A stretch of 64,000 nucleotides of DNA from an uncultured Nitrospiraceae bacterium (GCA_964447405.1 CAYUSP010000003.1:691723-755722), one strand, 5' to 3'; positions 3,063 to 31,141 are shown, counted from the stretch's first letter. Notes: a model not told the origin generated them from the letters alone. Translations and numbers: made by a program.

Positions 3063-3162
3063 GGTTTTAATTCAGTTGGGGGTCGCGAGTTCGTAGTTCG
3101 GAGATAAAGACCGAAACTGCGATTCTCACTTCCATCTCCGAACTCCAAACTCCGAACTTACC

Positions 3163-4848
3163 TCACGTTTCCTTCTGCGTCACCCTCACTACTTCGTCAA
3201 CTGACGTGATGCCGGCGAGGATCTTTTCTGCGCCGTCCTGGCGGAGCGAACGCATGCCTTTTTCCATAGCCAGGGCCTTGATCATGGAAGCATCCGAGTT
3301 CTTCATAATCATCTGGCGCATCTCGTCATCCACCGTCAGGAGCTCATAGATCGCGCTCCTGCCAAAATAGCCGGTGTGGAAGCAGGCTTCGCACCCTTTT
3401 GCCCGATACACGGTGATGCCCGCGGCTCCTGTCCTGATCTCGAGTTCCGCGATCTCGCCGGCGGTCATCTGGTATGGCTCACGGCACTCTTTGCACAGCA
3501 CGCGCACGAGCCTCTGCGCAAGGATCCCCATAACCGACGAGGAAATAAGAAACGGTTCGATCTTCATATCAATCAACCGGGTCACCGCACCGGCGGAATC
3601 ATTCGTATGCAGCGTGGAGAACACCAGGTGTCCGGTGAGCGCGGCCTGGATCGCAATCTCAGCGGTCTCGGAGTCCCGGATCTCGCCCACAAGGATCACG
3701 TCCGGATCCTGACGCAAAACCGAACGGAGCCCCGCGGCAAAGGTGAGATGGATCTTGGCGTTCACCTGGATCTGCCCGATGCCCTTGAGCTGGTACTCGA
3801 CCGGGTCTTCGATGGTGATGATGTTCTTGTCCGGAGAGTTGATCTTCGAGAGCGCCGCGTACAGCGTGGTAGTCTTGCCGCTGCCAGTCGGGCCGGTAAC
3901 GAGAACAATGCCGTGGGGTCGCTCGATCATCGCATTGAACCTGGTAAGGGTATCCCCGGTGAATCCGATCTGATCGAGAGGCAGCAGGGCGCTTTCGCGG
4001 TACAGGAGGCGGAGCACGAGCCGCTCGCCGAACGCGGTGGGAACAATCGAGACACGGATGTCCACATCCTTGCCACCGATCTTGATGCGCATGCCGCCGT
4101 CCTGCGGCAGCCGCCGTTCTGCGATGTTCAGATCGGCCATGATCTTGACGCGCGAAGCGATGCTGGCCTGAAACCGCTTCTGGATCGTGAGAATGTTGTA
4201 CAGGATGCCGTCTATGCGGAACCGCGCGATCATCTCTTTTTCGAAGGGCTCGATGTGAATGTCGCTCGCGCGCTCGCGGATGGCCTGGGACAGGAGCGAA
4301 TTCACCAGCCTGATGATCGGAGCGTCGTCGGTGGCCTCCAGCAGGTCCGCGGGCTCATCGAGCTCCACCGCGAGAAAGGACAGGTCATCCTCCTCCATTT
4401 CCTGGACCGTATCCTCGGCGCGGTTCATGTCCTCGCTGTGAAGGCGGTTGATGGTGTCCAGGATCAGTTCGGACGGGGCAAGCACCAGCGATATATCGGC
4501 GTTGAAAAGGGCCCGGAGATCATCAAGCGTGGCGAGGACAAGCGGTTCGGATGTGGCGGCAACGACCGAGCCGTTCTCCCTGCGGAGCGGGACGGCGATC
4601 GCTTTTTTTGCGTAGGTGATGGGAACCTTGAGGGCCAGCTCGCGGTCGATTTCCCCGAGCTCGCCCTGGAACGGAAGGCGGAGCTGGGCGCCGAGCGCCT
4701 TCAGCACATCGGCCTCCGTCACAAAGTTTAACCGGACCAGCAGCGTACCGATCCGTCCGCCGCGCTTTTTCTGGAGTTCGAGCGCCTTTTTCAGCCGCTC
4801 CGGCGAAAGCCCGGACTCAACAAGTATCTCGCCGAGCAGGCGTCTCAC
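3163..4848 (-). CDS. gspE: Type II secretion ATPase GspE
   Basis: Walker A GPTGSGKTTT, Asp box, His box and the tetracysteine CKEC...CEAC motif typical of GspE. Confidence 0.9.
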   Translation of the reverse strand: MRRLLGEILVESGLSPERLKKALELQKKRGGRIGTLLVRLNFVTEADVLKALGAQLRLPFQGELGEIDRELALKVPITYAKKAIAVPLRRENGSVVAATSEPLVLATLDDLRALFNADISLVLAPSELILDTINRLHSEDMNRAEDTVQEMEEDDLSFLAVELDEPADLLEATDDAPIIRLVNSLLSQAIRERASDIHIEPFEKEMIARFRIDGILYNILTIQKRFQASIASRVKIMADLNIAERRLPQDGGMRIKIGGKDVDIRVSIVPTAFGERLVLRLLYRESALLPLDQIGFTGDTLTRFNAMIERPHGIVLVTGPTGSGKTTTLYAALSKINSPDKNIITIEDPVEYQLKGIGQIQVNAKIHLTFAAGLRSVLRQDPDVILVGEIRDSETAEIAIQAALTGHLVFSTLHTNDSAGAVTRLIDMKIEPFLISSSVMGILAQRLVRVLCKECREPYQMTAGEIAELEIRTGAAGITVYRAKGCEACFHTGYFGRSAIYELLTVDDEMRQMIMKNSDASMIKALAMEKGMRSLRQDGAEKILAGITSVDEVVRVTQKET

Positions 4849-9962: not shown

Positions 9963-10097
9963 ACCATTTCACCGCAGAGGACGCAGAGGGGAAGCATGGC
10001 GAGGAAGGCAACGGCGGGCAAGGCATTAAGCTTTGTTTAAAAACCAGAAATAATTTTGAATTAAGATTTCCTTGGAGTTGATTTCCTCTGCTTCCTC
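9963..10097. repeat. Gene-less inverted-repeat pair ACCGCAGAGGACGCAGAGG / CCTCTGCTTCCTCTGCGGT (empty copy of the cassette seen at 12363-12843)
   Basis: 19-mer at 9963-9981 and its reverse complement (1 mismatch) at 10079-10097, enclosing ~97 bp with no ORF. Confidence 0.75.
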
Positions 10098-10114
10098 TGC
10101 GGTAACAATTATTT

Positions 10115-12334: not shown

Positions 12335-12362
12335 AACACAAACCTCAAAACCTTTTTTTACC

Positions 12363-12843
12363 GCAGAGGACGCAGAGGAAGTCAAACCCGCTGGCCTATA
12401 ATCCGTTGGCGACTCTCTTAATGCCATCTTTCAAATGAACAACATTGAAGTTTATTAATAGCCCAAGCTTTTTATTGCTTAATTTCAGGTATGAAAGAAT
12501 TTGTGCTTCATGAATCGGCAATATTTTCTCAACTGCCTTCAATTCAACGATAACACAATTGTCAAGCATAAGGTCTATTCTATATCCGGCATCGATCTTC
12601 AAGCCATCATACAGGATCGGCAAGGCCATTTGAGAAAGCACGGTTAATCCGAGCTTTCGTAGTTCATGCAGCAAACATGCTTCATACGCGCTTTCCAGCA
12701 AACCAGGACCCAAAGCTGAATGAACTTTCATTGCAGCTTCAATAATCTTACCACTAACCCCATTTATATCCATTTATTCCAGACCTCCTGTCTATCCTGC
12801 CAGTTTTTGACCTCCTCGCCTCTCACCCTCTGCGTCCTCTGCG
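12363..12843. mobile_element. Mini-cassette bounded by a perfect 19-bp terminal inverted repeat ACCGCAGAGGACGCAGAGG, carrying one GxxExxY gene
   Basis: IR at 12363-12381 and its exact reverse complement at 12825-12843. The same IR occurs as a gene-less pair at 9963-10097. Confidence 0.65.
12396..12773 (-). CDS. GxxExxY family protein (PD-(D/E)XK-like fold)
   Basis: 125 aa. ...CVIVELKAVEKILPIHEAQILSYLKLS... matches the GxxExxY signature (G..E..Y region near the C-terminus). Confidence 0.75.
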   Translation of the reverse strand: MDINGVSGKIIEAAMKVHSALGPGLLESAYEACLLHELRKLGLTVLSQMALPILYDGLKIDAGYRIDLMLDNCVIVELKAVEKILPIHEAQILSYLKLSNKKLGLLINFNVVHLKDGIKRVANGL

Positions 12844-12851
12844 GTGAAAGA

Positions 12852-16636: not shown

Positions 16637-16689
16637 ACTATTGATAAGAGGGAAACGTCGGTGAAGGATTCTATCTTACTTCTATCTTC

Positions 16690-17877
16690 TTACCTCTTCG
16701 CCTGCTCCTCTTCCCTCTCCATGCGAGCGTTCAGCTGTTTGTTGAACATATGATAGTTGCGTTTCATTTCCTCGATGCTGTCGCCGCCGAACTTGTCGAT
16801 CATGGCCGCTGCGATCTCGAAGGCAACCACTGCTTCCGCCACTACTCCTGCCGCGGGCACGGCGCAGACATCGGAGCGGTGCACGCTTGCCTTGAACGGC
16901 GTCTTGCTTACCAGATCAACGGAACGGAGCGGCTTCATCAGTGTGGGGATCGGCTTCATTGCCGCCCGAAGCGTTATGATCTCACCGTTGCTGATGCCGC
17001 CCTCGATCCCGCCCGCCAGATTGGTCTTGCGATAGAAACCGTCCTTCTTGTTCCACAATATCTCATCATGTACCTGGGATCCGGGCTTGTTGGCTGCACC
17101 GAATCCCGCACCGACCTCTACTCCCTTGATGGCCTGAATGCTCATGAGTGCGGCGGCAAGCCTGCTGTCGAGCTTCCGGTCCCAGTGCACGTGGCTGCCA
17201 AGTCCCATGGGCACACCGGTGATAAGCACCTCGAACACGCCACCCAGCGAGTCACCGGCCGCCCGTGCTTCATCGATCCGGCGCATCATGCGCTTCTCGG
17301 CCTCATGGTCAGCGCACCGCAGCTCCGATGCTTCCGCTTTTTTCCTGGTCTCTGCTGGTGCCATGGGTACCTTGGCATGGACATTCCCTATCGACAGCAC
17401 GTGGCTTATAACATCGATCCCAAATTCCTCAAGCAGCCTTTTTGCCACGGCACCTACAGCGACCCGCATGGCGGTCTCGCGTGCGCTCGACCTCTCCAGA
17501 ACGTTTCTTATGTCCGTGAATCCGTACTTCATGGCGCCGGCAAGGTCCGCATGGCCGGGACGGGGGCGGGTCACGGGGTCAGCAGAATTCAGGAACATGG
17601 GATCTGGTGACATCTTGTCGCGCCAGTTCTCCCAGTCCTTGTTGCGGACCATGAGGCCAAGAGGGCTGCCGAGCGTCTTTCCCCAGCGGACACCGGTGTA
17701 GATCTTGACCGTATCCTTTTCGATCTTCATCCGGTCACCGCGTCCGTATCCACCCTGCCTTCGGGCAAGATCACTATCTATATCCGTGACTCGTATCAGA
17801 AGGCCCGCTGGCAAGCCCTCAATAATGCCCATGAGCAGCTCGCCGTGCGATTCCCCAGCAGTCAGATAACGCAGCAT
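16690..17877 (-). CDS. aroC: Chorismate synthase
   Basis: [12 protein letters not shown]... Full-length AroC signature. Confidence 0.9.
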
Positions 17878-18105
17878 AAATTATCCCCCCTCCACAAATG
17901 GAACACTTACAGTTCAGCTTTGTTAAAGAAAAATAGCGAAAAAACCCGTAAAATCGCGCTCATCATAGCAAATTTGCAGTAGAAGTGCAATCAAAAGTAT
18001 GGTACTATTCAGCGTATTTTTTGGGTTTTTGGGGGTTTTTTCGCAATAAATTGACCTTCAAAAAATATATCCCATTACAACCGCACTCACGTTAGGATCA
18101 ATATC

Positions 18106-20810: not shown

Positions 20811-20920
20811 GGACAGAAGTAAGAAGACAGACTGAACCAATATACCGCACGCTTGTATACCTTGTCTATTGTCTGACTTCTCTCTTCTGTCCTCTGTCTT
20901 CTGTCCTCTGTCTTCTGACC
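20811..20920. repeat. Gene-less inverted-repeat element of the GGACAGAAGTAAGAAG family
   Basis: Left arm ggacagaagtaagaag (identical 16-mer to 29286-29301). Right arm cttctctcttctgtcctctgtcttctgtcctctgtcttctg (imperfect reverse complement, internally tandem). Confidence 0.6.
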
Positions 20921-20926
20921 CTCACC

Positions 20927-22561
20927 ATGCCCCTTACCTTTATTGACATAGAACGGCAGAAGAGCTGGCGCATAGGAATCTTTTTCCTCGTTCTCCTCGC
21001 GTTGTACCTCGTGATAGCGGCTCTCTTTGTAACCGCCTTTTTCCCCATTCCCTGGCATGGCGCGCTGCAGTTCTGGTTGATTGTCGGACTGGCTGCGCTG
21101 TTCATTGCAGGGATTCACTTCTGGTTCTCCGCATATGACACGGTCAGGACGGTAATACAAGGCCTCGAAGGCCAGCCGCCCGATCCTCAGGACGACGTGC
21201 ATACGATGTTCCTGAACATCATACAGGAGATCCAGGTCGTGACCGGGAGCAAACGGAAGATTCAGTGCACCGTGATTCCCTCATTCTCCCTGAATGCGCT
21301 GGCGGTTGCGGATCTCAGGGGCGAGGCTGCGATAGGAATCACGGAAGGTCTGCTGTCGCGCCTTACCCGGCCCCAGCTCGAAGCGGTCATCGCGCATGAA
21401 GCGCACCACATCCTTTCAGGGGATTGCCTGGAAGCCACCGTAGCTGCAAGCCTGTTCGGCACGTATGTATCTGCCATTGAAAAAATGAGCGCGACGTCAC
21501 AGGGCCGGGCCTTTGCGTCGCCCACGCTCCTGCTGGCCTGGCTGCTGATGAAACTGAGCCAGCTCCTGAACATGTTCATTTCTCGCGAGCGCGAGTACCG
21601 GGCCGACGCCGCAGCTGTACGCATGACCAGAAACCCCATCGCGCTCGCAGAGACACTCTATATGCTGTCGCGAAGCTGGCGGGGCGCTGGTTTTATCGGC
21701 AGCGGATACGAAATGCTCTGTATCGTGAATCCCCGATCAGCGTTCATGGACGAAACCGAAGGATTCTGGGCCGACCTGCTGTCCACGCATCCTCCGCTCC
21801 GGAAAAGGATGGACATTCTGCTTTCCATGGCGCATGCGAACATCGCTGAATTGGATGCCCGTTCAGCGGGGGCAGCAGATCACAAGCCGACAAAGGTGGA
21901 ACTTCGATACTATGCCATGAATCCCCAGCAAAAGTGGCAGGGGCCGTTCACGCCGGCAGAACTCGGCGAACTGCTGTGGTTGTCGCCCCTTACCTGGGTC
22001 ACGCAGGGCAAGAATCATCCCGTGGACCGCGCTTCGAAAGAGCCTTCCCTCAACGCCATTTTCATGGCTAAACTTGCCTCGCAGGAGCGGCCTCTTTCGG
22101 ATTTTTCCTGCCCTGCCTGCAGCCAGCAGCTCGTTATAAGTTCTTATGAAGGCACTCAGATCTATCAATGCAGATTTTGTTCCGGCATTCTGGTGGATAT
22201 GATGAAAATACCCCGGATCATCGCTCGAACAAGCCGGGAGCGTCTGTGCTCGGAGAGGATCGTATCTCTTGCCAAGGCAGTCGCTTCGGCAAATCAAATG
22301 AAAGTTACGCTTCAGAAACACGCTGCGGGTGGGCATAAGGCGGTTGCGCTTCTGCCGTGCCCGAAATGCGGCAATCCCATGTTCAGGTGCTTTTACAGCC
22401 AGGCCCACCTGATTGAAATAGACCGCTGCAGTTTCTGCAGCCTCACATGGTTCGAGCAGGACGAGCTCGAAATGCTGCAATGCATGATAGAGCACAGGTT
22501 GATGCCGGATGTCACCGGGCAGGAACAGATTACTCTGCCAACTGCTGAAGCATGGATTTAA
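20927..22561 (+). CDS. M48 family (HtpX-like) zinc metallopeptidase with a C-terminal tandem zinc-ribbon extension
   Basis: TM helices. HEAHH zinc-binding motif. C-terminal CPACSQ...CRFCSG and CPKCGN...CSFCS pairs. Confidence 0.75.
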   Translation: MPLTFIDIERQKSWRIGIFFLVLLALYLVIAALFVTAFFPIPWHGALQFWLIVGLAALFIAGIHFWFSAYDTVRTVIQGLEGQPPDPQDDVHTMFLNIIQEIQVVTGSKRKIQCTVIPSFSLNALAVADLRGEAAIGITEGLLSRLTRPQLEAVIAHEAHHILSGDCLEATVAASLFGTYVSAIEKMSATSQGRAFASPTLLLAWLLMKLSQLLNMFISREREYRADAAAVRMTRNPIALAETLYMLSRSWRGAGFIGSGYEMLCIVNPRSAFMDETEGFWADLLSTHPPLRKRMDILLSMAHANIAELDARSAGAADHKPTKVELRYYAMNPQQKWQGPFTPAELGELLWLSPLTWVTQGKNHPVDRASKEPSLNAIFMAKLASQERPLSDFSCPACSQQLVISSYEGTQIYQCRFCSGILVDMMKIPRIIARTSRERLCSERIVSLAKAVASANQMKVTLQKHAAGGHKAVALLPCPKCGNPMFRCFYSQAHLIEIDRCSFCSLTWFEQDELEMLQCMIEHRLMPDVTGQEQITLPTAEAWI

Positions 22562-22576
22562 AGGACGCGAACATAC

Positions 22577-23251
22577 ATGATCACGATTAAGTTATTTGCG
22601 AATCTGAAGGACAAGGCAGGAAAGAGCGAGCTGCATATAGCTGCACAACAACTCACCCTATCAGACCTTATTGAGCGGATTGCCCGGGAGCATCCCGCCC
22701 TGTCCGAAATGCTATCCTGCGGCAGGATCATTGTATCTATCAATCAGGAGCTCGCGGGCAGGGATGCACTGATCAAGGATGGCGATGAAGTTGCGCTTAT
22801 GCCGCCGTTCTCGGGAGGTGGTCCGTCAGCGGGCGTAGTCCGAATACAGAAAGAGCCTTTTTCCATAGAAGAGGAAACAACTCGGCTGAAAACCTCATCA
22901 GCGTCCATCGGAGCGATTGTGGCATTCCTCGGGACTACCCGCGATATATCCAGGAATAAAAAGGTATCCCAGCTGGAGTTCGAACACTATCCCGGCATGG
23001 CGGAAAAAATGCTTCTCGAGTTGAGAGAGCGGGCGATCAGGGATTATAGGATACTCGATGCGACGATCATACACCGCACCGGCATCATACCCGCGGGCGA
23101 CGACATCGTCCTCGTCCTCGTCGCGGCCGGGCACCGCGACGAAGCATTTGCAGCATGCCGCTTCTGCATTGATGAACTAAAGAGAACTGCGCCTATCTGG
23201 AAAAAAGAGACCACGCCGGAAGGCGAGGTGTGGGTGGAGGAACATCCATGA
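22577..23251 (+). CDS. moaDE: Fused molybdopterin synthase sulfur-carrier (MoaD) and catalytic (MoaE) subunits
   Basis: N-terminal ~85 aa ends in GG (MPPFSGGG) like MoaD. The remainder matches MoaE. Confidence 0.75.
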   Translation: MITIKLFANLKDKAGKSELHIAAQQLTLSDLIERIAREHPALSEMLSCGRIIVSINQELAGRDALIKDGDEVALMPPFSGGGPSAGVVRIQKEPFSIEEETTRLKTSSASIGAIVAFLGTTRDISRNKKVSQLEFEHYPGMAEKMLLELRERAIRDYRILDATIIHRTGIIPAGDDIVLVLVAAGHRDEAFAACRFCIDELKRTAPIWKKETTPEGEVWVEEHP

Positions 23252-23372
23252 GGCAGAGGTTAGAAGATTGATGACAGGCAAACCCAATAAAGCTCTTTGG
23301 TTCAGACTGCTATCTTTAATCTCTTGTTAGTCTGTCTTCTGACAGTCTGTTCTTATCGTCTTTTGTGCTCAA

Positions 23373-23768
23373 TTATTTCTTCGCTACTTTTTTCCCGTCC
23401 CGGAGGAAGACAACGCAGGTTGTGCAGTCCGCGTCCTGCCGGCATCGGGTGGTTTCCCAGCAGGGTTTGCTCTTGTTCGTGAATGCCGTGCAGATTACCC
23501 GACGATCGTCCGGGCAGTCCCGTATCTCCCAGCAAGGTGCGTAATCAAGTAGTTTCTTGATCCCTTCAATGCTGATTTTCTTCGCATGGATCAGTTCACG
23601 GATACATCGCAGCCACTTAATATCATTTTCCGTATAGAGCCGGTTCCTGCGCTCCCGTGTCGGAAGAATGAGGCCGTGCTTTTCATAGAGGCGCAGCGTC
23701 TGTGCCGTCGTCCCGACGAGTTTGGCTGCAATACCCATGGTATAGAGCGGAGCATCCTTGTCTTTCAT
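23373..23768 (-). CDS. MerR-family HTH regulator with a duplicated Cys-rich C-terminal motif
   Basis: N-term YTMGIAAKLVGTTAQTLRLYEKHGL (MerR HTH). C-term PCWEIRDC...ICT and PCWETTRC...CTTC (7 Cys). Confidence 0.65.
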   Translation of the reverse strand: MKDKDAPLYTMGIAAKLVGTTAQTLRLYEKHGLILPTRERRNRLYTENDIKWLRCIRELIHAKKISIEGIKKLLDYAPCWEIRDCPDDRRVICTAFTNKSKPCWETTRCRQDADCTTCVVFLRDGKKVAKK

Positions 23769-23818
23769 TGCATCGAGGCTTTCTGGTGCCATATGTTTTT
23801 TCTGTTCCCTTCGGATTT

Positions 23819-24535
23819 TTACCGTGGAATAAGGATTGTCATTTTATCCAGAATCAGCAGCACGCCCATGATGATCAGGATGATGCCGCTGGTGATCTTG
23901 ACTGCCTTGAAATGTTTTTTTAACACATTGAATGACGAAAGGAAGGCGCTGATGGCGATGGCCGAAAGGATGAATGGTACGCCAAGACCGAGCGAATAAA
24001 ACATGAGCAGTGTCATCCCGCTTCCCAGCGTATCGCTCGTCACGGCAAGAGCAAGGACCGATCCCAGAAAAGGCCCGGTGCATGGCGTCCAACCTGCTCC
24101 GAAGATCATACCGACGACAACCGTACCCAAATAACCTGCGGGCCGCGATTTAAGACTGAGCTTTGCTTCCTGCTGCAAAAATGGGATGTTGACGACATCC
24201 ATCACAAATACACCCATGATAATAACCAGCACTCCTCCCACAATACGAATGACATCGAGGTGCTGCGAAAGTATGCTGCCCGCAAGGCTCGCCGTGGCGC
24301 CGAGGAGCACGAAAATGATCGAGAACCCCGCCACGAATGCCAGTGAATGGAGCAGGGTAATGCTCATGTTCTTCCGGCGCGTCTCCCTGCTGACCAACTC
24401 GTCGTAACTGATCCCGGTTATATAGGAAACGTAGGAGGGGATAAGCGGCAGAATGCAGGGAGAAGCAAAAGAAATAATCCCCATGACGAGTGAGTAAAGC
24501 AGGACATACGGCGTCAAACCATGCGAAAGGTCCAT
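23819..24535 (-). CDS. ccdA: Cytochrome c biogenesis / thiol-disulfide transporter CcdA (DsbD family)
   Basis: FASPCILPLIPSYV and a second Cys in TM4. 6 TM helices. Confidence 0.8.
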   Translation of the reverse strand: MDLSHGLTPYVLLYSLVMGIISFASPCILPLIPSYVSYITGISYDELVSRETRRKNMSITLLHSLAFVAGFSIIFVLLGATASLAGSILSQHLDVIRIVGGVLVIIMGVFVMDVVNIPFLQQEAKLSLKSRPAGYLGTVVVGMIFGAGWTPCTGPFLGSVLALAVTSDTLGSGMTLLMFYSLGLGVPFILSAIAISAFLSSFNVLKKHFKAVKITSGIILIIMGVLLILDKMTILIPR

Positions 24536-24806
24536 GCAGGATAATCTCCCTTTAAAAACAGCAATGCATAATACCAAAGCAGGTCAAATTTAGTCAAGCA
24601 ATACTTTTGTTATTCTCGGGTTGATGTGTTCTAAAGTTCAGACTATGCCGGGTTTTTCGCTTGATATTTCTCTGTTGCCGGCACACTCGTTCCGCACGCC
24701 ATTCCCACAGACACACGGCATTTTTTTTATTGACAAAGAATGGCAAGTTCACTATTCTTCAGCTCGAATCAATCGCAGCAATTCTGTGCATAGGAGGATC
24801 AATTCG

Positions 24807-25433
24807 ATGTACATCGATCAACCGATACGACAGTTTATGGACAAACTGGCCAGCAAATCTCCCGAACCTGGAGGCGGCAGCGTAGCAGCGCTTACCGGAT
24901 CGCTCGGTGCGGCACTGGTAAGCATGGTCTCGAATCTCACCCTCGGTAAGGAAAAATACAAGGACGTTCAGCCTCAGATCGAACAGTTGCTCAAGGAATC
25001 GGAAAAACTGCGAACAGAAATGCAGGACCTCATCCAGAAGGACACCGAAGTATATGGCGCTCTTTCCGAAGTTTACAAGATGCCAAAGAATACTGATGCG
25101 GAAAAAGCTGCGCGCACTGCAAAGATGCAGGTGGCGTTGAAAAATGCCTGCCAGGTTCCCTTTGACATCGGGATGAAATCACTGGAAGTGGCGAAACTCG
25201 CCCGTCGCGCTGCCGATATCGGGAATGTTGGCGCGGTCAGCGACGCGGGCGTGGCCGTGCTGCTCGCCCAGGCCTGTGCGCAGAGTGCCGCGCTCAATGT
25301 CAAGATCAACGTGAACAGCATCAAGGATGATGCATACAACCAAGACACCTGGACACGCATGCAGGATGTGCTCGGCCAGGTTGCGGCTCTGGAAAAATCA
25401 GTGATGGAAACGACGTATAAGAAAATGGGCTAA
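24807..25433 (+). CDS. Methenyl-THF cyclohydrolase / formiminotransferase-cyclodeaminase C-domain (FtcD-like)
   Basis: PEPGGGSVAALTGSLGAALVSMV motif. RBS aggagg at 24794. Confidence 0.7.
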   Translation: MYIDQPIRQFMDKLASKSPEPGGGSVAALTGSLGAALVSMVSNLTLGKEKYKDVQPQIEQLLKESEKLRTEMQDLIQKDTEVYGALSEVYKMPKNTDAEKAARTAKMQVALKNACQVPFDIGMKSLEVAKLARRAADIGNVGAVSDAGVAVLLAQACAQSAALNVKINVNSIKDDAYNQDTWTRMQDVLGQVAALEKSVMETTYKKMG

Positions 25434-25570
25434 AATATTGGGTCATGTAGCATGGGTCAAGCAGCAAGGATCCAAGAGCGGGCGGTAACGATCTTGTTTG
25501 ATGGTTCTCCCCATGCTACTTGCTACAGTGCTTTTGCTACTTGACCCTCTTCGACGAAGGAGAAGAACAC

Positions 25571-26422
25571 ATGTCAGCTAAACTATTAACCGGCAAAGAA
25601 GTTGCTCAGAAGATGGACCAGGATATCCAGAAGGATGTCCAGGAGCTCAAGACGAAGGGTTGCAATCCAGCGCTCAGGATCATGATCGTGGGCGATGCGG
25701 AAGATTCGATCTTTTACGCGAACAGCGCAAAAAAGATGGCGGAAAAGAACGGCATTGCCTGTGAAATAGAGCAGGTTGCCGGAACTACAAGTCAGGCAGA
25801 CTTTGTCAGCACGCTTAAACAGCGGAACGCGGACAAGAACATTCACGGTATCATCGTCATGCGGCCGTTCCCAAAACAGATCAGCGAAGATGTTGTAAAA
25901 CACATTCTCGCTCCGGAAAAAGATATTGACTGCTTCAATCCAGTGAACGCCGGCAAGATCATGGCCGGCGATATGACCGGCTTCCCGCCGGCAACCCCCC
26001 AGGCAGTCATGGAAATCCTGAAATTCTATCAGATCCCCATGAGCGGCAAGGAAGCGGTGGTCATCGGCCGCTCCATGGTTGTGGGCAAGCCTATGTCCAT
26101 GCTGCTGTTGGGTGAGAACGCGACAGTCACCGTATGCCACTCAAAAACGCAGGACCTTCCTGGCGTTTGCCGCAGAGCAGACATTCTTGTTGCAGCAATC
26201 GGCAAGGCAAAGATGATCACAAAGGACTATATCAAGCAGGGCGCCACGGTCATGGATGTGGGAATTAATCCGGAAGGTGATAAGTTCGTGGGTGATGTGG
26301 ACACCGAACCGGCAAAGGATGTTGCCGGAGCTATAACTCCGGTCCCCGGTGGTGTGGGCACGGTCACGACGCGTGTGCTGCTCAAGCATGTCGTTAAAGC
26401 AGCGAAACTGCAGAACCCATAA
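25571..26422 (+). CDS. folD: Bifunctional methylene-THF dehydrogenase / methenyl-THF cyclohydrolase
   Basis: Full-length FolD (VIGRSMVVGKPMSMLLL...PVPGGVGTVT). Confidence 0.9.
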   Translation: MSAKLLTGKEVAQKMDQDIQKDVQELKTKGCNPALRIMIVGDAEDSIFYANSAKKMAEKNGIACEIEQVAGTTSQADFVSTLKQRNADKNIHGIIVMRPFPKQISEDVVKHILAPEKDIDCFNPVNAGKIMAGDMTGFPPATPQAVMEILKFYQIPMSGKEAVVIGRSMVVGKPMSMLLLGENATVTVCHSKTQDLPGVCRRADILVAAIGKAKMITKDYIKQGATVMDVGINPEGDKFVGDVDTEPAKDVAGAITPVPGGVGTVTTRVLLKHVVKAAKLQNP

Positions 26423-26577
26423 CGAGAGATCAATGGTTTTGGCAAGAACCAAGGACAAAATAGCAGAGCAAAGCAGAAATTCAGGTTTGAAAGCTGCATA
26501 GTACGTCGAACTTATACCTGTTACCGCCATTCCGGTGAAGAGCGGAATCCGGATTCACCGTTACATCGCATAACATA

Positions 26578-26616
26578 AAAAACCCCCGGGAGATTGCTCC
26601 CCCGGGGGTTTGTTTT
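26578..26616. terminator. Bidirectional Rho-independent terminator (aaaaaacccccgggagattgctcccccgggggtttgtttttg)
   Basis: Perfect GC-rich hairpin flanked by an A-run and a T-run. Convergent genes folD (+) and OMP (-). Confidence 0.75.
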
Positions 26617-26653
26617 TGCTTCCGTATCAGCACAATTACTGTGCGAACACGAT

Positions 26654-27952
26654 TTAGAACGCCATGGTAAGCACGCCCTGGATGTTGGTTGAAGCATCCT
26701 TGCCCAGACCTGCGCCCGGGATAAGATGGCCGACAACCCAGTTCCAGGTCACGCCATCAGCAAGCTTCCAGTTCGCCTTGAGGTCGATTTCGTTTCCGAG
26801 CTCGGAAGTATCTGCACCACCAACTTCCTTCTTGTTCGCGACCTTTTCCGTGGCCTGCAGAATCCAGATATCGCCGCCAATGCTCAGGTTCTTTGTAGCT
26901 GCGAACATGGCGCCTGCATTAAGCGCTGTGGTACCGCAGAAGCCCTGGTTCTTCGCGCCGCATGCACCAGCGACCAAGAATTCATAGACCAGCGTGTAGT
27001 GAACATCCTTGTCAAGGAAGGTGACCATTTGATTGAAGTCAGGTGAGGTCGAATTGCGCTTGACGCCGGAACCGCGGGCTACGGTAAAGTTCACCGTGAG
27101 AGCATCCATCGGCACTTTGCCTTCGATTACGATCTGGTTGCCCTTGAGTTTTGCCGAGGTGGTAGCACCCTTTGCTGTGCCAGACTGCATGTCAAGTTCA
27201 GCCTTGAGATCGATCGGGCCGACTTTGCCGCCAAAATGCAAGCCGACGTTCGTGGCTTTCGTGTCATAACCGGCTGTATTGAATCCAAAGCCATTTCGAC
27301 GGTCATTCGCCTGTAAGATGTTGATACCGGCTGTGGCATCACCAAACTTGTTGGTGGCAACGAGCACATAGGCATCAATGTCATCGCTGGCATTGATCGC
27401 TCCCTCGGAGATCTTCACATCCACTACGCCAAGATGGAGTCCGCCGAAATCAGCATAGGCTACTAAGGCATCGGAACCATACTTGTTGGAACGAATGAAC
27501 CAAGCATTGCTGAGCTGAAGGAACATATGACCAGCCTTGAAAAAGACTGGCGTTCCCGGGATCGGGGTCAGGAGCCATGCTTCGCGAAGCTTGATGCGGC
27601 TTGCGGGACCAGTGGTGGCAACGTAATTGCCAGCTGTATTCGTGCCACCGGTCACTACCGTCGTGGTTCCCTGCTCTGCTTCATATCTGCCGAATGTGTC
27701 CCAGTCGTTCTCGATCGTCACTTTAGCCTTGGCATCGCCTGCCTTGGCATTAATGTCAATGCGAACTCTCTCCTGCGTGCTAACGTCTCTTGTGGCGCTC
27801 GTGTCAGCTGTTGCATCACTAAAATCCAGGTTGTTGAAATTCTTGCTTCTCAAAAATACCTGCCCGCCTATGGTAACATCCGCGGCCAGGGCCACCGTAC
27901 TGATCATAACCATCGCCAGTGCCAACAGTACTACGAAATACTTCTTCATCAT
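26654..27952 (-). CDS. Outer-membrane beta-barrel protein / porin (hypothetical)
   Basis: Signal peptide, alternating amphipathic beta-strand character, C-terminal aromatic (…LTMAF). Confidence 0.5.
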   Translation of the reverse strand: MMKKYFVVLLALAMVMISTVALAADVTIGGQVFLRSKNFNNLDFSDATADTSATRDVSTQERVRIDINAKAGDAKAKVTIENDWDTFGRYEAEQGTTTVVTGGTNTAGNYVATTGPASRIKLREAWLLTPIPGTPVFFKAGHMFLQLSNAWFIRSNKYGSDALVAYADFGGLHLGVVDVKISEGAINASDDIDAYVLVATNKFGDATAGINILQANDRRNGFGFNTAGYDTKATNVGLHFGGKVGPIDLKAELDMQSGTAKGATTSAKLKGNQIVIEGKVPMDALTVNFTVARGSGVKRNSTSPDFNQMVTFLDKDVHYTLVYEFLVAGACGAKNQGFCGTTALNAGAMFAATKNLSIGGDIWILQATEKVANKKEVGGADTSELGNEIDLKANWKLADGVTWNWVVGHLIPGAGLGKDASTNIQGVLTMAF

Positions 27953-28665
27953 TCATCCTCCCTTAACATTGATTTTGCCCCGAATTGCTCCGGAACACAA
28001 GGTAACCTCTTTTTTATCTACAACTCAAAATGATGCCGATGCATTATTGCGGTTTATTGGGACAGCACCCCCCCTTTCATCTTTGTATCAAAATTTTGAA
28101 CAAACGAAGGATAGAGACTCAAGTCCACATAGTGAGCTGATGTGCATTTCAAATTTTACTGCATTTCTTGTATTTTTTTTGCGGAATCCCTTGCTGCTGC
28201 TTTTGGGACAACTGATGTATTGCTCAACGCGAACACGTTGGCAATGGTGATATGTAGGTCTGTCAGTGGTTATCATTGATTGATAATTTCATACGAATCT
28301 GCCACTAGCACAAACAACTACAAACAACGAAATGTGAAAACCGGGGAAGACAAAACACGTGATGCAAGCATTCAATGAGCATTTGGAAGCAATTGAAGTA
28401 GGGCAAATATAACAAAGTCGCATAGTCAAGTCAAGACTTTTCTACCTCATTGAAATGGGAATAAAACATGATCAGTTGCAGATTACCGAAACTATAAACT
28501 CGCTGACTTGCTGACGTAGAAAAGATTGCCCGCGCATATAACACCATTCATTCATGAAACAGGTCCCAAAAAGTCTGACGTACCTCAGCTGCGATTTGAT
28601 CAATCAGTCGGACCTGTGGCTAACCAGTCGCCGCCAATTCCCGGGATCATCATTTCAGTTTCCCC

Positions 28666-29313
28666 TTGCCATCACAAATAACTCATGCTATAACGCTCGT
28701 CATGTCAACCTCTCCCTCCTTAGAAGAACAGATAACGATGGCGGGCCTCACATACGGACGCCGCCACGACATCGCATACCGCTCCGGCATGGTGCTCCAG
28801 GTATGCGGTGCTGCCTTGCTCGCTGTGCTGTATCCGCTCGACAGCCCGTTCTATACCATAGGCATCATGCTGTTCGAAGCCGGCGTACTGCTTTCTGCAA
28901 TCTATCTTCTCGTTTGGATGCGCCCGGTCAAGAAGATAATAGTCGGGTCGGTGATCGCAGGGCTCGTTCTTCAAGTAGTCGGTGCCTTCGCGGCCCCGGA
29001 ACAATATGCGGGTCTGGTTCTGCTCTCAGGAATCGGGCTCGTCTGCGCTGGAGCGGCTGGGATGGTCGGCAATGAGGCGTTTTGCTTTGGATACCGTGAA
29101 GGCTGGGTGCTTATGCTGGCTGGATTTCCCGTGATGGTCCTGGCAAATCTGCTGCTCAGAGAGAACCGCATTTTCAATTCGCTGGGTTTCTCCGTTATTT
29201 TTTTACTGCTGCTTTCACTTACAGGCAAGAAGCTAAGGCAGAAATTGCTTTCTTTACCCTCTACAAGCGTTTGCGGGGTGTCGGAGAGGACAGAAGTAAG
29301 AAGTAAGAAGTAA
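28666..29313 (+). CDS. Hypothetical polytopic membrane protein
   Basis: Several hydrophobic helices. No recognisable family. Start uncertain. Confidence 0.3.
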   Translation: MPSQITHAITLVMSTSPSLEEQITMAGLTYGRRHDIAYRSGMVLQVCGAALLAVLYPLDSPFYTIGIMLFEAGVLLSAIYLLVWMRPVKKIIVGSVIAGLVLQVVGAFAAPEQYAGLVLLSGIGLVCAGAAGMVGNEAFCFGYREGWVLMLAGFPVMVLANLLLRENRIFNSLGFSVIFLLLLSLTGKKLRQKLLSLPSTSVCGVSERTEVRSKK

Positions 29314-29722
29314 GAGAACTACCAAATATAATTCGTCCAACATGAAAAAACATAACTTCAGAAATCTAAAAATCTACCAACGAGCCATAGCATTCGCTGT
29401 GGATATTTACCAGATCAGCAGGAGTTTTCCGCAGGATGAAATTTATGGGCTGACAAGTCAGATACGACGGGCCGCAACTTCAATCCCCCTTAATATTGCC
29501 GAAGGCAGTGGCAGCACATCAGGAAAAGAGTTTAGGCGATTTCTTGAAATTGCTTTACGTTCTGATTATGAGGTATTGGCCTGTCTGGAAATATCATTAC
29601 GATTGAATTACTGCAATCATGCGGTTTTTGAAAAACTGACTCAGGAAGCAAACGAAATAGCATCCATGATAGCTGGATTCTCAAAAAGCCTATAATCTTA
29701 CTTCTTACGTCTTATCTCCTTT
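29286..29722. mobile_element. Mini-cassette bounded by GGACAGAAGTAAGAAG-family imperfect inverted repeats, carrying one four-helix-bundle gene
   Basis: Left ggacagaagtaagaagtaagaagtaagag (29286-29314). Right tcttacttcttacgtcttatctcc (29697-29720, imperfect reverse complement). Confidence 0.55.
29342..29695 (+). CDS. Four-helix-bundle protein (23S rRNA intervening-sequence protein / Avd-like family)
   Basis: 117 aa. IYQRAIAFAVDIYQISRSFPQDEIYGLTSQIRRAATSIPLNIAEGSG... is a hallmark of this family. Confidence 0.8.
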   Translation: MKKHNFRNLKIYQRAIAFAVDIYQISRSFPQDEIYGLTSQIRRAATSIPLNIAEGSGSTSGKEFRRFLEIALRSDYEVLACLEISLRLNYCNHAVFEKLTQEANEIASMIAGFSKSL

Positions 29723-29734
29723 TTCTTTCTTCTG

Positions 29735-31141
29735 TCACTTAAAATCTTCCTTTTTCAAACCATACCGCGCCATCTTTTCATGGAAGTTCTTGATATTGAT
29801 CCCCGCATGACCAGCCGCTTTGGTCATGTTTCCGGCATACATTTTGAGAAGCTGGGTAAAATATTCTGTTTCAAACTGCGCAACGACCTCAGTTTTGATC
29901 ATCCGAAAAGGCGGGATATCGCCTCCTCCGGGGAATGACGCGGTGAACTTTCCTGTTCCTCCCGGACGTTTCAAGTCAAGACGGCTGAGGGTGTCGCCCT
30001 TTTCCATGATCACTGCGCGTTCGATAAGATTCTCCAGTTCGCGCACGTTTCCGGGATAGGAATACCGCAGCAACGCAGTGAGCGCATCCGGTGATATAGA
30101 AGTAATCGTTTTCTGGTTTTTTTCGCAATATTTCCTGAGAAAAAATGAGGCTAAAAGCGGGACATCGTCCATCCGGTCCCGCAATGCGGGCAATTTGATC
30201 GGAACAACATTCAGCCGGTAAAAAAGGTCCTCGCGAAACAACCGTTCACCCATAGCGCGATGAAGATCCTTGTGCGTGGCGGCAATGACCCGTACATCGA
30301 CTTTTACGGGATGATTACCTCCCACGCGTTCGAACTCACGCTCCTGCAGTACGCGCAGGAGCTTCATCTGGACCGGCATGGACATTTCCCCGATCTCGTC
30401 GAGGAACAGCGTACCACCATCCGCCATCTCGAATCTACCGATGCGCTGCCGGATCGCACCGGTAAACGATCCCTTCTCGTGTCCAAACAGTTCACTTTCC
30501 AGGAGGGTCTCGGGAAGGGCTGAACAGCTCACAACGACGAATGGGCGGTCCTTTCTTCTGCTGTTATAGTGGATCGACCGGGCTATGAGCTCTTTGCCTG
30601 TGCCGCTCTCTCCGTGGATCAGCACAGTTGCATCGGTCTCGGCCACTGTACGGATGAGCTGAAATATCCCCTGCATGTGCGGATTTCTTCCCAAAAGATT
30701 GCCAAACTGATAACGCTCCTCCACCTCATGCCTGAGATTTTCCACCTCCCGGAAAAGCCTCCTGCGTTCAACAGCATTTTTTACCTGTTGGCTCAGATCC
30801 TCATATTGTATCGGTTTGGTTAAAAAGCTGTAGGCGCCCTCCTTCATTGCCTTGACAGCCATCTCTATCGTCCCGTAAGCGGTCACGACGATCACCGGAA
30901 TGTCAGTCCTGCCCGGCCCCGGGAAGGCTCCCTTGCGAAGCTTCTCGAGCAGGTCCATACCCGTGATCATCGGCATCTGCTGGTCCACGATAATGACATC
31001 GAAATCGCGGCTCTCAAGGCATCTCAATGCCGAAACGCCGTCTTCCGCCGTCTCTACTTCATAGCCTTCCCTTCTGAGGTTGGCAGACATGACCAGAAGG
31101 ATGTCGGGCTCATCGTCGACTATTAAGAGGGAGCCTTTCAT
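29735..31141 (-). CDS. Sigma-54-dependent Fis-family response regulator (NtrC-like)
   Basis: REC domain (LIVDDEPDIL). AAA+ sigma-54 interaction domain (GESGTGKELIARSIH, GAFTGA). C-terminal HTH. Confidence 0.9.
   Translation of the reverse strand: MKGSLLIVDDEPDILLVMSANLRREGYEVETAEDGVSALRCLESRDFDVIIVDQQMPMITGMDLLEKLRKGAFPGPGRTDIPVIVVTAYGTIEMAVKAMKEGAYSFLTKPIQYEDLSQQVKNAVERRRLFREVENLRHEVEERYQFGNLLGRNPHMQGIFQLIRTVAETDATVLIHGESGTGKELIARSIHYNSRRKDRPFVVVSCSALPETLLESELFGHEKGSFTGAIRQRIGRFEMADGGTLFLDEIGEMSMPVQMKLLRVLQEREFERVGGNHPVKVDVRVIAATHKDLHRAMGERLFREDLFYRLNVVPIKLPALRDRMDDVPLLASFFLRKYCEKNQKTITSISPDALTALLRYSYPGNVRELENLIERAVIMEKGDTLSRLDLKRPGGTGKFTASFPGGGDIPPFRMIKTEVVAQFETEYFTQLLKMYAGNMTKAAGHAGINIKNFHEKMARYGLKKEDFK

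Follow-up and report, generated by a model that had tools for sequence, protein, structure and literature searches.

Intervening sequences (IVSs) are insertions within bacterial rRNA genes, and their origin and function, like those of the S23p open reading frame (ORF) found in some of them, have been open questions since 1990, as was stated explicitly in a 2016 study of Coxiella (PMC4990558). The 23S IVS of Coxiella burnetii measures 428-444 nt, is closed by a 28-bp terminal stem and holds an S23p (PF05635) ORF; the start codon is preceded by an AGAAGA motif, three GACAGAT and one GACAGAA, the number of repeats differing among strains, and RNase III cuts the IVS within the stem, at the first repeat (PMC4990558). 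Two elements of related anatomy are described here from a stretch of 64,000 nucleotides of an uncultured Nitrospiraceae bacterium (GCA_964447405.1 CAYUSP010000003.1:691723-755722), referred to below as the window: a gene-bearing cassette at 29285-29737 and a gene-less hairpin at 20811-20917. In Salmonella, ORF-less 23S IVSs of about 90-110 nt occur in helix 25 and helix 45. We consider, with slightly more confidence than doubt, that the two elements of the window are gene-bearing and gene-less hairpin elements of the IVS type, co-transcribed with their hosts and carrying a stem that would be a substrate for RNase III. In this type of architecture, a stem of 20-30 bp arises from the pairing of two arrays in inverted orientation, each with about 4-5 tandem heptamers (of the GACAGAA/TAAGAAG type here), and its loop holds either a tightly packed small gene or about 40 nt of spacer.

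The cassette covers roughly 450 nt of the plus strand, between a DUF2301-like membrane-protein gene upstream and a sigma-54 regulator gene downstream. Its 5' arm (29285-29315) is an (AGAAGTA)n array, detected by Tandem Repeats Finder (TRF) as AGAAGTA x3.4 at 29292-29315, within which the DUF2301-like ORF (28666-29313) terminates. The four-helix-bundle gene (29342-29695) encodes 117 amino acids and belongs to the 23S rRNA IVS protein family (TIGR02436, 3.6e-36; PF05635, 1.2e-37); the closest solved relatives of its product were 2GSC (1.6e-14) and 2RLD, both with five chains per entry. The 3' arm (29696-29737) begins at the first base after the ORF stop codon. Pairing between the arms was found in two layers, an inner inverted repeat of 19 nt (29297-29315 with 29696-29714, 95%) and an outer one of 27 nt (29289-29315 with 29710-29736, 78%), and in the predicted minimum free energy (MFE) fold the 3' arm contributes to a terminal stem closing the whole insert, ORF included (z -3.7 against shuffles). 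Comparison of intact four-helix-bundle genes with relatives gave nonsynonymous divergences (dN) of 0.10-0.21 with saturated synonymous ones (dS), a pattern that indicates purifying selection on the gene where it is intact; the copies at loci L126 and L205 are pseudogenes with stop codons or frameshifts. No sigma-70-like promoter (plus strand) or intrinsic terminator was found in or beside either the gene-bearing or the gene-less element, and PADLOC returned no defence match for the four-helix-bundle protein. As a side observation, the left arm of the cassette supplies the final ~9 codons of the DUF2301-like ORF (…SERTEVRSKK*), whose annotated C-terminus is therefore repeat-derived.

The architecture of ORF-bearing rRNA IVSs had been missed in the preliminary description of this locus. 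With the ORF-bearing 23S IVSs of Coxiella and Leptospira, the cassette shares the protein family, a size of ~430-450 nt, an ORF occupying the whole loop that a long terminal stem closes and the orientation of this ORF in the sense of the host transcript; even the heptamers at the 5' side differ little in sequence (GACAGAT/GACAGAA for Coxiella, GGACAGAAG/TAAGAAG in the window). The window cassette is thus built exactly like genuine IVSs. It differs from them by its location outside rRNA, its flanks being protein-coding and no Rfam family scoring above threshold over the whole window, where the hairpin gave only sub-threshold look-alikes of miRNA precursors. It differs also in that the stop codon of the host gene lies inside the arm, and in that cutting by RNase III, known for IVSs, is here a prediction. 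By analogy with IVSs, the stem length in the window (20-30 bp) would be compatible with excision by this enzyme.

The gene-less hairpin, also read on the plus strand, occupies the entire spacer between lemA (stop codon 20805-20807) and the gene of an M48/HtpX-like peptidase (start codon 20927), and is similar in size and shape to the ORF-less IVSs of Salmonella, with the difference that it lies in an mRNA operon spacer. Its purine-rich 5' arm (20811-20832) begins 3 nt past the lemA stop codon and pairs with 20871-20892 over 22 nt (86%), enclosing a loop of 38 nt in the MFE structure (20833-20870). The 3' arm (20871-20917) is a pyrimidine-rich heptamer array of 6.6 units with TRF periods of 7 and 14 (20872-20917, TCTGTCT/TCTGTCC x6.6, equivalent to a 14-nt unit x2.8, 96% matches); it exceeds the 5' arm in length and stops 9 nt before the M48 start codon. 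The predicted RNA fold reached -33.4 kcal/mol (z -4.3 against shuffles). The loop may possibly be a remnant of the 5' untranslated region of a cassette, the resemblance between GAACCAATATA and GAACTACCAAATATA being weak.

The preliminary description had reported that one identical 16-mer opens both elements, and that an inverted repeat family bounds the four-helix-bundle gene and has an empty copy. The 16-mer, GGACAGAAGTAAGAAG, was recovered exactly at 20811-20826 and 29288-29303, and the inverted repeats and folds given above confirmed that the family is real. When up to three mismatches were allowed, six matches to GGACAGAAGTAAGAAG were found in the window against 0.45 expected, a number reached in 0/100 shuffles; the additional matches were the reverse-complement arms, at 20877-20906(-) and 29722-29737(-). 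Taken alone, a single exact match between two 16-mers in 64 kb lies close to what chance would give (~0.5-1 pairs by calculation); the significance of this pair derives from its position, its arm context and its relatives. A wide search for the 16-mer, of the kind recommended in that description, was of limited use: at least 119 matches were obtained among 185,579 species genomes, compared with ~277 expected in 596 Gb, they were mostly in coding sequence, and apart from L023 no more than a few arrays from other phyla were informative. Locus L023, from Nitrospirae bacterium GWC2_56_14, carries the orthologous cassette, the left arm of which (GGACAGAAGTAAGAAGACAGA) agrees at 21/21 positions with that of the window's gene-less hairpin; ACTTCTCTCTTCT is likewise common to the right arm of the L023 cassette and the gene-less hairpin. 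The arms of this hairpin were also ranked against those of 80 four-helix-bundle cassettes, and the best matches, L124, L121, L120/L023 and L122, all belonged to the clade nearest the window gene, with TCT recurring every 7 columns in the arm alignments. On account of this ranking and of these alignments, arm type was seen to track the four-helix-bundle clade, and the gene-less hairpin was placed in the same arm family, in agreement with the claim that the cassette has a gene-less relative.

The 80 loci were obtained by scanning metagenomes with the 117-aa protein (37-82% identity), and both flanks could be scored in 79 of them. The arm score was the best ungapped inverted repeat between 120 nt upstream and 120 nt downstream, and flanks of different loci were paired as a control. 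The mean score was 14.1, against 7.1 (sd 2.3) for mismatched flanks, and 52/79 loci lay above the 95th percentile of the control. A block of loci with strongly conserved outer flanks proved to be 23S rRNA by Rfam large subunit (LSU) hits, with the ORF in sense; Rfam hits to LSU or small subunit (SSU) rRNA span the arms of the rRNA-embedded copies. Significant heptamer arms were present in 26/27 of these copies and in 26/49 of those outside rRNA, for which the upstream neighbour was co-oriented in 35/40 loci. The arms were nearly always tandem heptamers, although the unit varied by locus (for example CAGAAGA, TCAGACT, CAGTAGA, GCTAGAA, GTTAGAT, ATCAGGG, GCAAGAA, GTTCGTA and TTGGTTG). Autocorrelation at lag 7 was 0.42 upstream and 0.39 downstream, whereas coding sequence and other lags gave ~0.27, and lag 7 was the best lag in 53/79 loci on each side. 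Within the same loci, heptamer arrays occurred at 2.85/kb up to 150 nt from the ORF versus 0.19/kb elsewhere, a 15-fold enrichment. They had a median of 4.6 units on the 5' side, ending ~15 nt before the ATG, and of 4.3 units on the 3' side, beginning ~5 nt after the stop codon. Inverted pairs of arrays fell into two spacing classes, one of 5-65 nt, without gene, and one of ~330-570 nt, almost always enclosing a four-helix-bundle gene. The position of the purine arm, always 5' of the gene, was dropped as evidence for orientation since the polarity of an inverted repeat is identical on both strands.

Several rRNA loci deserve mention in their own right. A four-helix-bundle IVS was found inside a 16S rRNA gene (L184:3887-4670), and one 23S gene, ~1 kb longer than the model, held two separate four-helix-bundle IVSs with different heptamer arms (L149:2676-6600); a second copy was also present in L143, L162 and L169. 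ORF-less heptamer hairpins occurred in a 23S gene and in tRNA-23S spacers (L197:1026-1101, L197:329-406, L164:1554-1693, L151:69-165). Four-helix-bundle genes of L154, L175, L191 and L196 (ORF near 3990-4400) were located ~1 kb past the last 23S match, probably just beyond the 3' end of the 23S gene, and had neither inverted nor heptamer arms (inverted repeat score ~7).

Orthologous sites were compared in syntenic 20-kb loci of six related Nitrospirota (L200, L202, L204, L205, L206 and L256), found through M48 orthologs of 63-72% identity. The site between the DUF2301 and sigma-54 genes was occupied by a cassette in L023, L120, L126, L205 and L121; L023, essentially identical to L120, has it flanked, as in the window, by the membrane-protein gene and the sigma-54 regulator gene, and one clade member (L123) was found in a different context, beside PIN and WYL-domain genes. 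In L205 (18587-19022, frameshifted) and L121 (468-903), the gene is inverted relative to the window, and thus co-oriented with the regulator gene, with its arms retained, which suggests inversion by recombination between the arms. At the lemA/M48 spacer, a stem-loop was predicted in 7/7 genomes, with tandem-heptamer arms that were clear in the window, L200, L202 and L204, short in L205 and L206 and weak in L256. The units were of the CAGAAGA type in the window, GTCAGAA in L200 and L204, GATTGCG in L202 and short and G-rich in L205, L206 and L256, that is, at least four unrelated unit types at one conserved site. The spacer between moaDE and the MerR gene held heptamer-type hairpins in 4/5 of the relatives first examined and also in L256 (CAGAAGA/GAGAAGT type, -35.9 kcal/mol). 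Strong ones were those of L200 (GATTGCG), L202 (CAGGAGT/CAGAAGC, -51 kcal/mol) and L204 (GAGTCTN), and L205 displayed (CTTCTTA) repeats, the unit of the window cassette. The same unit types consequently recur at different sites in different genomes, and sites of the GACAGAA/TAAGAAG type numbered three in the window and three in L205, gene-bearing and gene-less copies sharing the type within one genome. Two scenarios would fit this pattern: mobile hairpins may repeatedly have settled anew in spacers that tolerate them, or strong selection may preserve a hairpin while its arms evolve rapidly in concert. In the window itself, the moaDE/MerR spacer contains a weak degenerate hairpin (23252-23350, plus strand, MFE -29.5 to -30.6 kcal/mol). 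The preliminary description had suggested 23255-23345 as a possible degenerate copy of the family; this part of it is weak, the region 23250-23375 folding no better than shuffles (z -0.95), though relatives hold strong heptamer hairpins there.

A second cassette of the window (12356-12849, minus strand) carries a GxxExxY (PDDEXK_3) gene at 12396-12773 (TIGR04256, 3.9e-44, 149.7 bits for a cut-off of 35; PF13366, 145.3 bits). It is bounded by arms at 12827-12849 and 12356-12378 (ACCGCAGAGGACGCAGAGG), which form an inverted repeat of 23 nt (96%) with a 9-nt unit, CGCAGAGGA, and its fold had a z of -4.4. A gene-less hairpin of the same arm family lies on the plus strand in the NamZ/MurU-AmgK spacer (9971-10103; inverted repeat of 19 nt, 95%; -56.8 kcal/mol, z -5.5). 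At the orthologous site of two relatives, between a small ORF and the gene of the CCA-adding enzyme, a hairpin with identical termini, TTTACCGC...GCGGTAAA, is present without the gene (L200:1715-1815 and L204:1860-1950); no hairpin was present at this site in L205 and L206. GxxExxY proteins of 73-86% identity were found in Betaproteobacteria, Binatia and Nitrospirota. One gene of 74% identity, flanked by the methylase and helicase genes of a restriction-modification operon, had the same arms, with ACCGCAGAGGACGCAGAG upstream and its complement downstream, and another of 75% identity had the ACCGCAGAGGACGCAGAG motif in direct copies. The exact 18-mer ACCGCAGAGGACGCAGAG also occurred in 35 IMG/VR contigs, mostly as gene-less palindromes of 100-120 nt, several per contig. 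The form of this palindrome family is CTTTCACCGCAGAGGACGCAGAGG..loop..CCTCTGCGTCCTCTGCGGTGAA (L221-L255, e.g. L222:3793-3911 and L244:1980-2098). In L207-L213 (e.g. L207:2960-3450), on contigs of up to 1 Mb, a restriction-modification operon has a ACCGCAGAGGACGCAGAG-armed GxxExxY cassette wedged between its methyltransferase gene and its ResIII helicase gene. A scan of viral contigs with the GxxExxY protein detected no relatives, and PADLOC gave marginal Cas4-like matches only. Little literature was found on GxxExxY, PDDEXK_3 or TIGR02436, and no description of the ACCGCAGAGGACGCAGAG arm sequence or of its palindrome family was found in the searchable literature.

The two cassette types had been described as apparently sharing one repeat superfamily because of common repeat units, and this part of the preliminary description stands for architecture but not for descent. 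In both types the arms are inverted tandem repeats, purine-rich on the 5' side, and the loop is either empty or occupied by a small gene. However, judged from their sequence, the GxxExxY arms are a separate family with a conserved terminal sequence (9-nt units, ACCGCAGAGGACGCAGAG), unlike the four-helix-bundle arms, in which 7-nt units differ from cassette to cassette. The occurrence of the 8-mer CAGAGGAC both in the GxxExxY arms and, as its reverse complement, in the right arm at 20877-20917 does not testify to a common origin, and a shared descent of the two types is not demonstrable.

If the elements at 29285-29737 and 20811-20917 are of the IVS type, each would lack its own promoter and be made within a host transcript, at the 3' end of the DUF2301-like gene for the former and in the lemA/M48 operon spacer for the latter. 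We infer this co-transcription because no promoter was found, the host ORF stops within the arm and upstream neighbours tend to be co-oriented. By analogy with the IVSs of Salmonella, Leptospira and Coxiella, RNase III would then cut the long double-stranded stem and either free the element from the host RNA or split the latter, and such cutting would account for insertions being tolerated in rRNA helices as well as in operon spacers. The four-helix-bundle protein would presumably act on the nucleic acid of its own element, and the complementarity and period of the arms would most likely be kept by slippage followed by intra-palindrome correction, by selection on the stem, or by both. Mobility is suggested by shared arm types occupying different sites. 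A number of observations weigh against this interpretation. No target-site duplication was seen at the arm boundaries inspected, and no recent insertion polymorphism of a whole element; 23/49 four-helix-bundle genes outside rRNA had no significant arms, meaning that the stem is not obligatory; and G.U mismatches were no more frequent than A.C ones in the stems (73 and 75), giving no sign of selection for pairing in the sense-strand RNA, so that the complementarity could be maintained at the DNA level. No ribosome-binding site was evident before the ATG at 29342, and for Coxiella the authors doubted that the S23p protein is made (PMC4990558). Finally, the conservation of a hairpin at one operon spacer in seven genomes is explained no less well by a host function than by a selfish element.

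This last point leads to another explanation, which we regard as rather unlikely, namely that the hairpins are resident operon punctuation, controlling mRNA processing or stability or the translation of the downstream gene, and that the four-helix-bundle and GxxExxY genes are later passengers of their loops. The lemA/M48 stem-loop is predicted in every genome compared in spite of a complete turnover of units, and hairpins are also held by the moaDE/MerR, FTCD/FolD and chorismate synthase/shikimate kinase spacers of most relatives. The GxxExxY-site hairpin exists with a gene in the window and without one in L200 and L204, and the longer 3' array at 20871-20917 stops 9 nt short of the M48 start codon, which has no Shine-Dalgarno sequence. 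A precedent may be seen in the heptamers located just upstream of start codons in Beggiatoaceae, which were proposed as translational signals; intergenic direct heptamer repeats with a patchy spread include the cyanobacterial short tandemly repeated repetitive (STRR) sequences and the TAACTGA repeats of Beggiatoaceae, Cyanobacteria and Bacteroidetes (PMC4679880). The present arrays resemble them as tandem intergenic 7-nt units, often just before start codons, but those repeats are direct arrays, with one inverted pair reported and no reported link to four-helix-bundle genes or IVSs. Resident hairpins are difficult to reconcile with the occurrence of the same architecture inside 23S and 16S rRNA, where the arms must have arrived with the insert, with an arm type that follows the four-helix-bundle clade, and with identical arm types at different sites across genomes, which suggests movement rather than conservation in place.

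Elements moving at the DNA level offer a further, unlikely, possibility. The arms would then be terminal inverted repeats forming DNA hairpins for an enzyme, either, for the GxxExxY family, the encoded PD-(D/E)XK nuclease or, for the four-helix-bundle family, a factor acting in trans, and the RNA stem would be incidental. Such palindromes are familiar as repetitive extragenic palindromes (REP), bacterial interspersed mosaic elements (BIME), Correia elements and others resembling miniature inverted-repeat transposable elements (MITE), some of which are cleaved by RNase III when transcribed. They appear to share with the window elements a multi-copy intergenic distribution inside operons, and share an excess of gene-less over gene-bearing copies, clearest here for the ACCGCAGAGGACGCAGAG family. 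The symmetric stem mismatches, the inversion of the gene in L205 and L121, where its flanking genes are unchanged, the conservation of GxxExxY arms around genes of 74-75% identity, one of them in a restriction-modification operon, and the repeated gene-less palindromes of the IMG/VR contigs all agree with this explanation, as do the 'multiple transfers' between divisions described for PDDEXK_3 (PMC3424549). The arms of the window type differ from REP, BIME, Correia and MITE-like palindromes by being tandem arrays of 7-9-nt units instead of a unique terminal repeat, by the absence of a target duplication and by some loops with a small non-transposase gene. No transposase or REP-associated tyrosine transposase (RAYT) was annotated beside any copy in the syntenic loci, the four-helix-bundle arms possess no conserved terminal sequence that an enzyme could recognise, and no catalytic activity is known for the four-helix-bundle fold. 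That the arrays are neutral, slippage-prone AG-rich microsatellites flanking a small gene, and the 16-mer a low-complexity coincidence, seems very improbable: the exact pair in 64 kb and the number of largely coding matches in 596 Gb are indeed no higher than expected, but arms of the same locus match each other twice as well as those of mismatched loci (14.1 vs 7.1), arrays are concentrated beside the gene, the window contains 8 arrays against 1.6 in block shuffles, the 21-mer recurs in the arm of an ortholog, and fold z values range from -3.7 to -5.5. Scarcely credible, lastly, is a remnant of a diversity-generating retroelement (DGR) with the gene as its Avd accessory protein. The gene had been called Avd-like, and a remote homology does exist, as seen from a weak PHROG match to 'Avd protein of DGR' (E 7.9e-6). 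The best family match, however, is TIGR02436/PF05635, and the context differs from that of DGRs: no reverse transcriptase appeared in the syntenic annotation, which lists DUF2301, a sigma-54 response regulator and a PAS histidine kinase around the gene, and no template/variable repeat pair was found among the repeats of the window.

Under the IVS-type interpretation, rRNA IVSs would be one part, resident in rRNA, of a broader family of hairpin elements, which may help to explain the origin of insertions in rRNA. Already known were the rRNA IVS and its ORF, and heptamers had been noted once, in Coxiella; in the searchable literature, no description was found of copies outside rRNA, of general heptamer arms, or of a link to gene-less operon-spacer hairpins and GxxExxY cassettes. 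The present data extend these arms from a single species to true IVSs across phyla and show that an element matching IVSs in protein family, in size and in its heptamer arms also resides outside rRNA, where ordinary genes end, and has gene-less relatives in operon spacers. They also connect IVSs with the unexplained intergenic heptamers of cyanobacteria, Beggiatoaceae and Bacteroidetes. Both elements of the window belong to a population of tandem-repeat hairpins that is lineage-wide and apparently cross-phylum. A broader proposal, which we hold as doubtful, would unite rRNA IVSs, operon-spacer tandem-repeat hairpins and scattered four-helix-bundle and GxxExxY genes into one class of mobile hairpins colonising transcribed sites that tolerate a stem. 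Their proteins would act on the arms, the PD-(D/E)XK nuclease recognising the ACCGCAGAGGACGCAGAG hairpin and the four-helix-bundle protein, assuming a pentamer as in its solved relatives, reading the ~4-5 heptamer units of an arm. Such a class, if real, would explain the universal 7-nt period as well as the origin of IVSs; the correspondence between ~4.5 units per arm and five chains in the solved relatives is only a lead. For annotation, the hairpins explain spurious small ORFs and extended C-termini.

Other hairpins and arrays were distributed over the window, where tandem-repeat arrays all lie within the first 30 kb, with almost none at 30-64 kb. A lone heptamer array of the GACAGAA/TAAGAAG type (16662-16700, minus strand, sense GAAGAGGTAAGAAGATAGAAGTAAGATAGAA) is located in the chorismate synthase/shikimate kinase spacer and has no strong partner arm. 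It belongs to direct-repeat family D2 together with sequences at 20871, 20885 and 29695, and the orthologous spacers also hold arrays. Two gene-less hairpins were recognised by both inverted repeat and TRF searches. One, at 3087-3158 (minus strand), has GTTCGGA-type heptamer arms (TRF CTCCGAA x3.3) and is of the same architectural class; the other, at 25436-25545 (plus strand), with GGGTCA/AGCA heptamer-type arms, occupies the FTCD_C/FolD spacer, in which relatives have other heptamer hairpins. Before folD, L204 contains a one-sided (TTTGTGA) x7-8 array (L204:16401-16459) with no clear complementary arm. An A/T-rich gene-less hairpin with arms of GGGTTTTT units was observed at 17928-18047. Four G-rich heptamer arrays (299-335, 727-769, 1269-1307 and 1779-1820; GGGTCAG on the minus sense strand), all in the same orientation and without complementary partner, are found at each gene junction of a pseudopilin-like operon. 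Their G tracts could form G-quadruplexes, and the next ORF seems to begin within the array at 1304.

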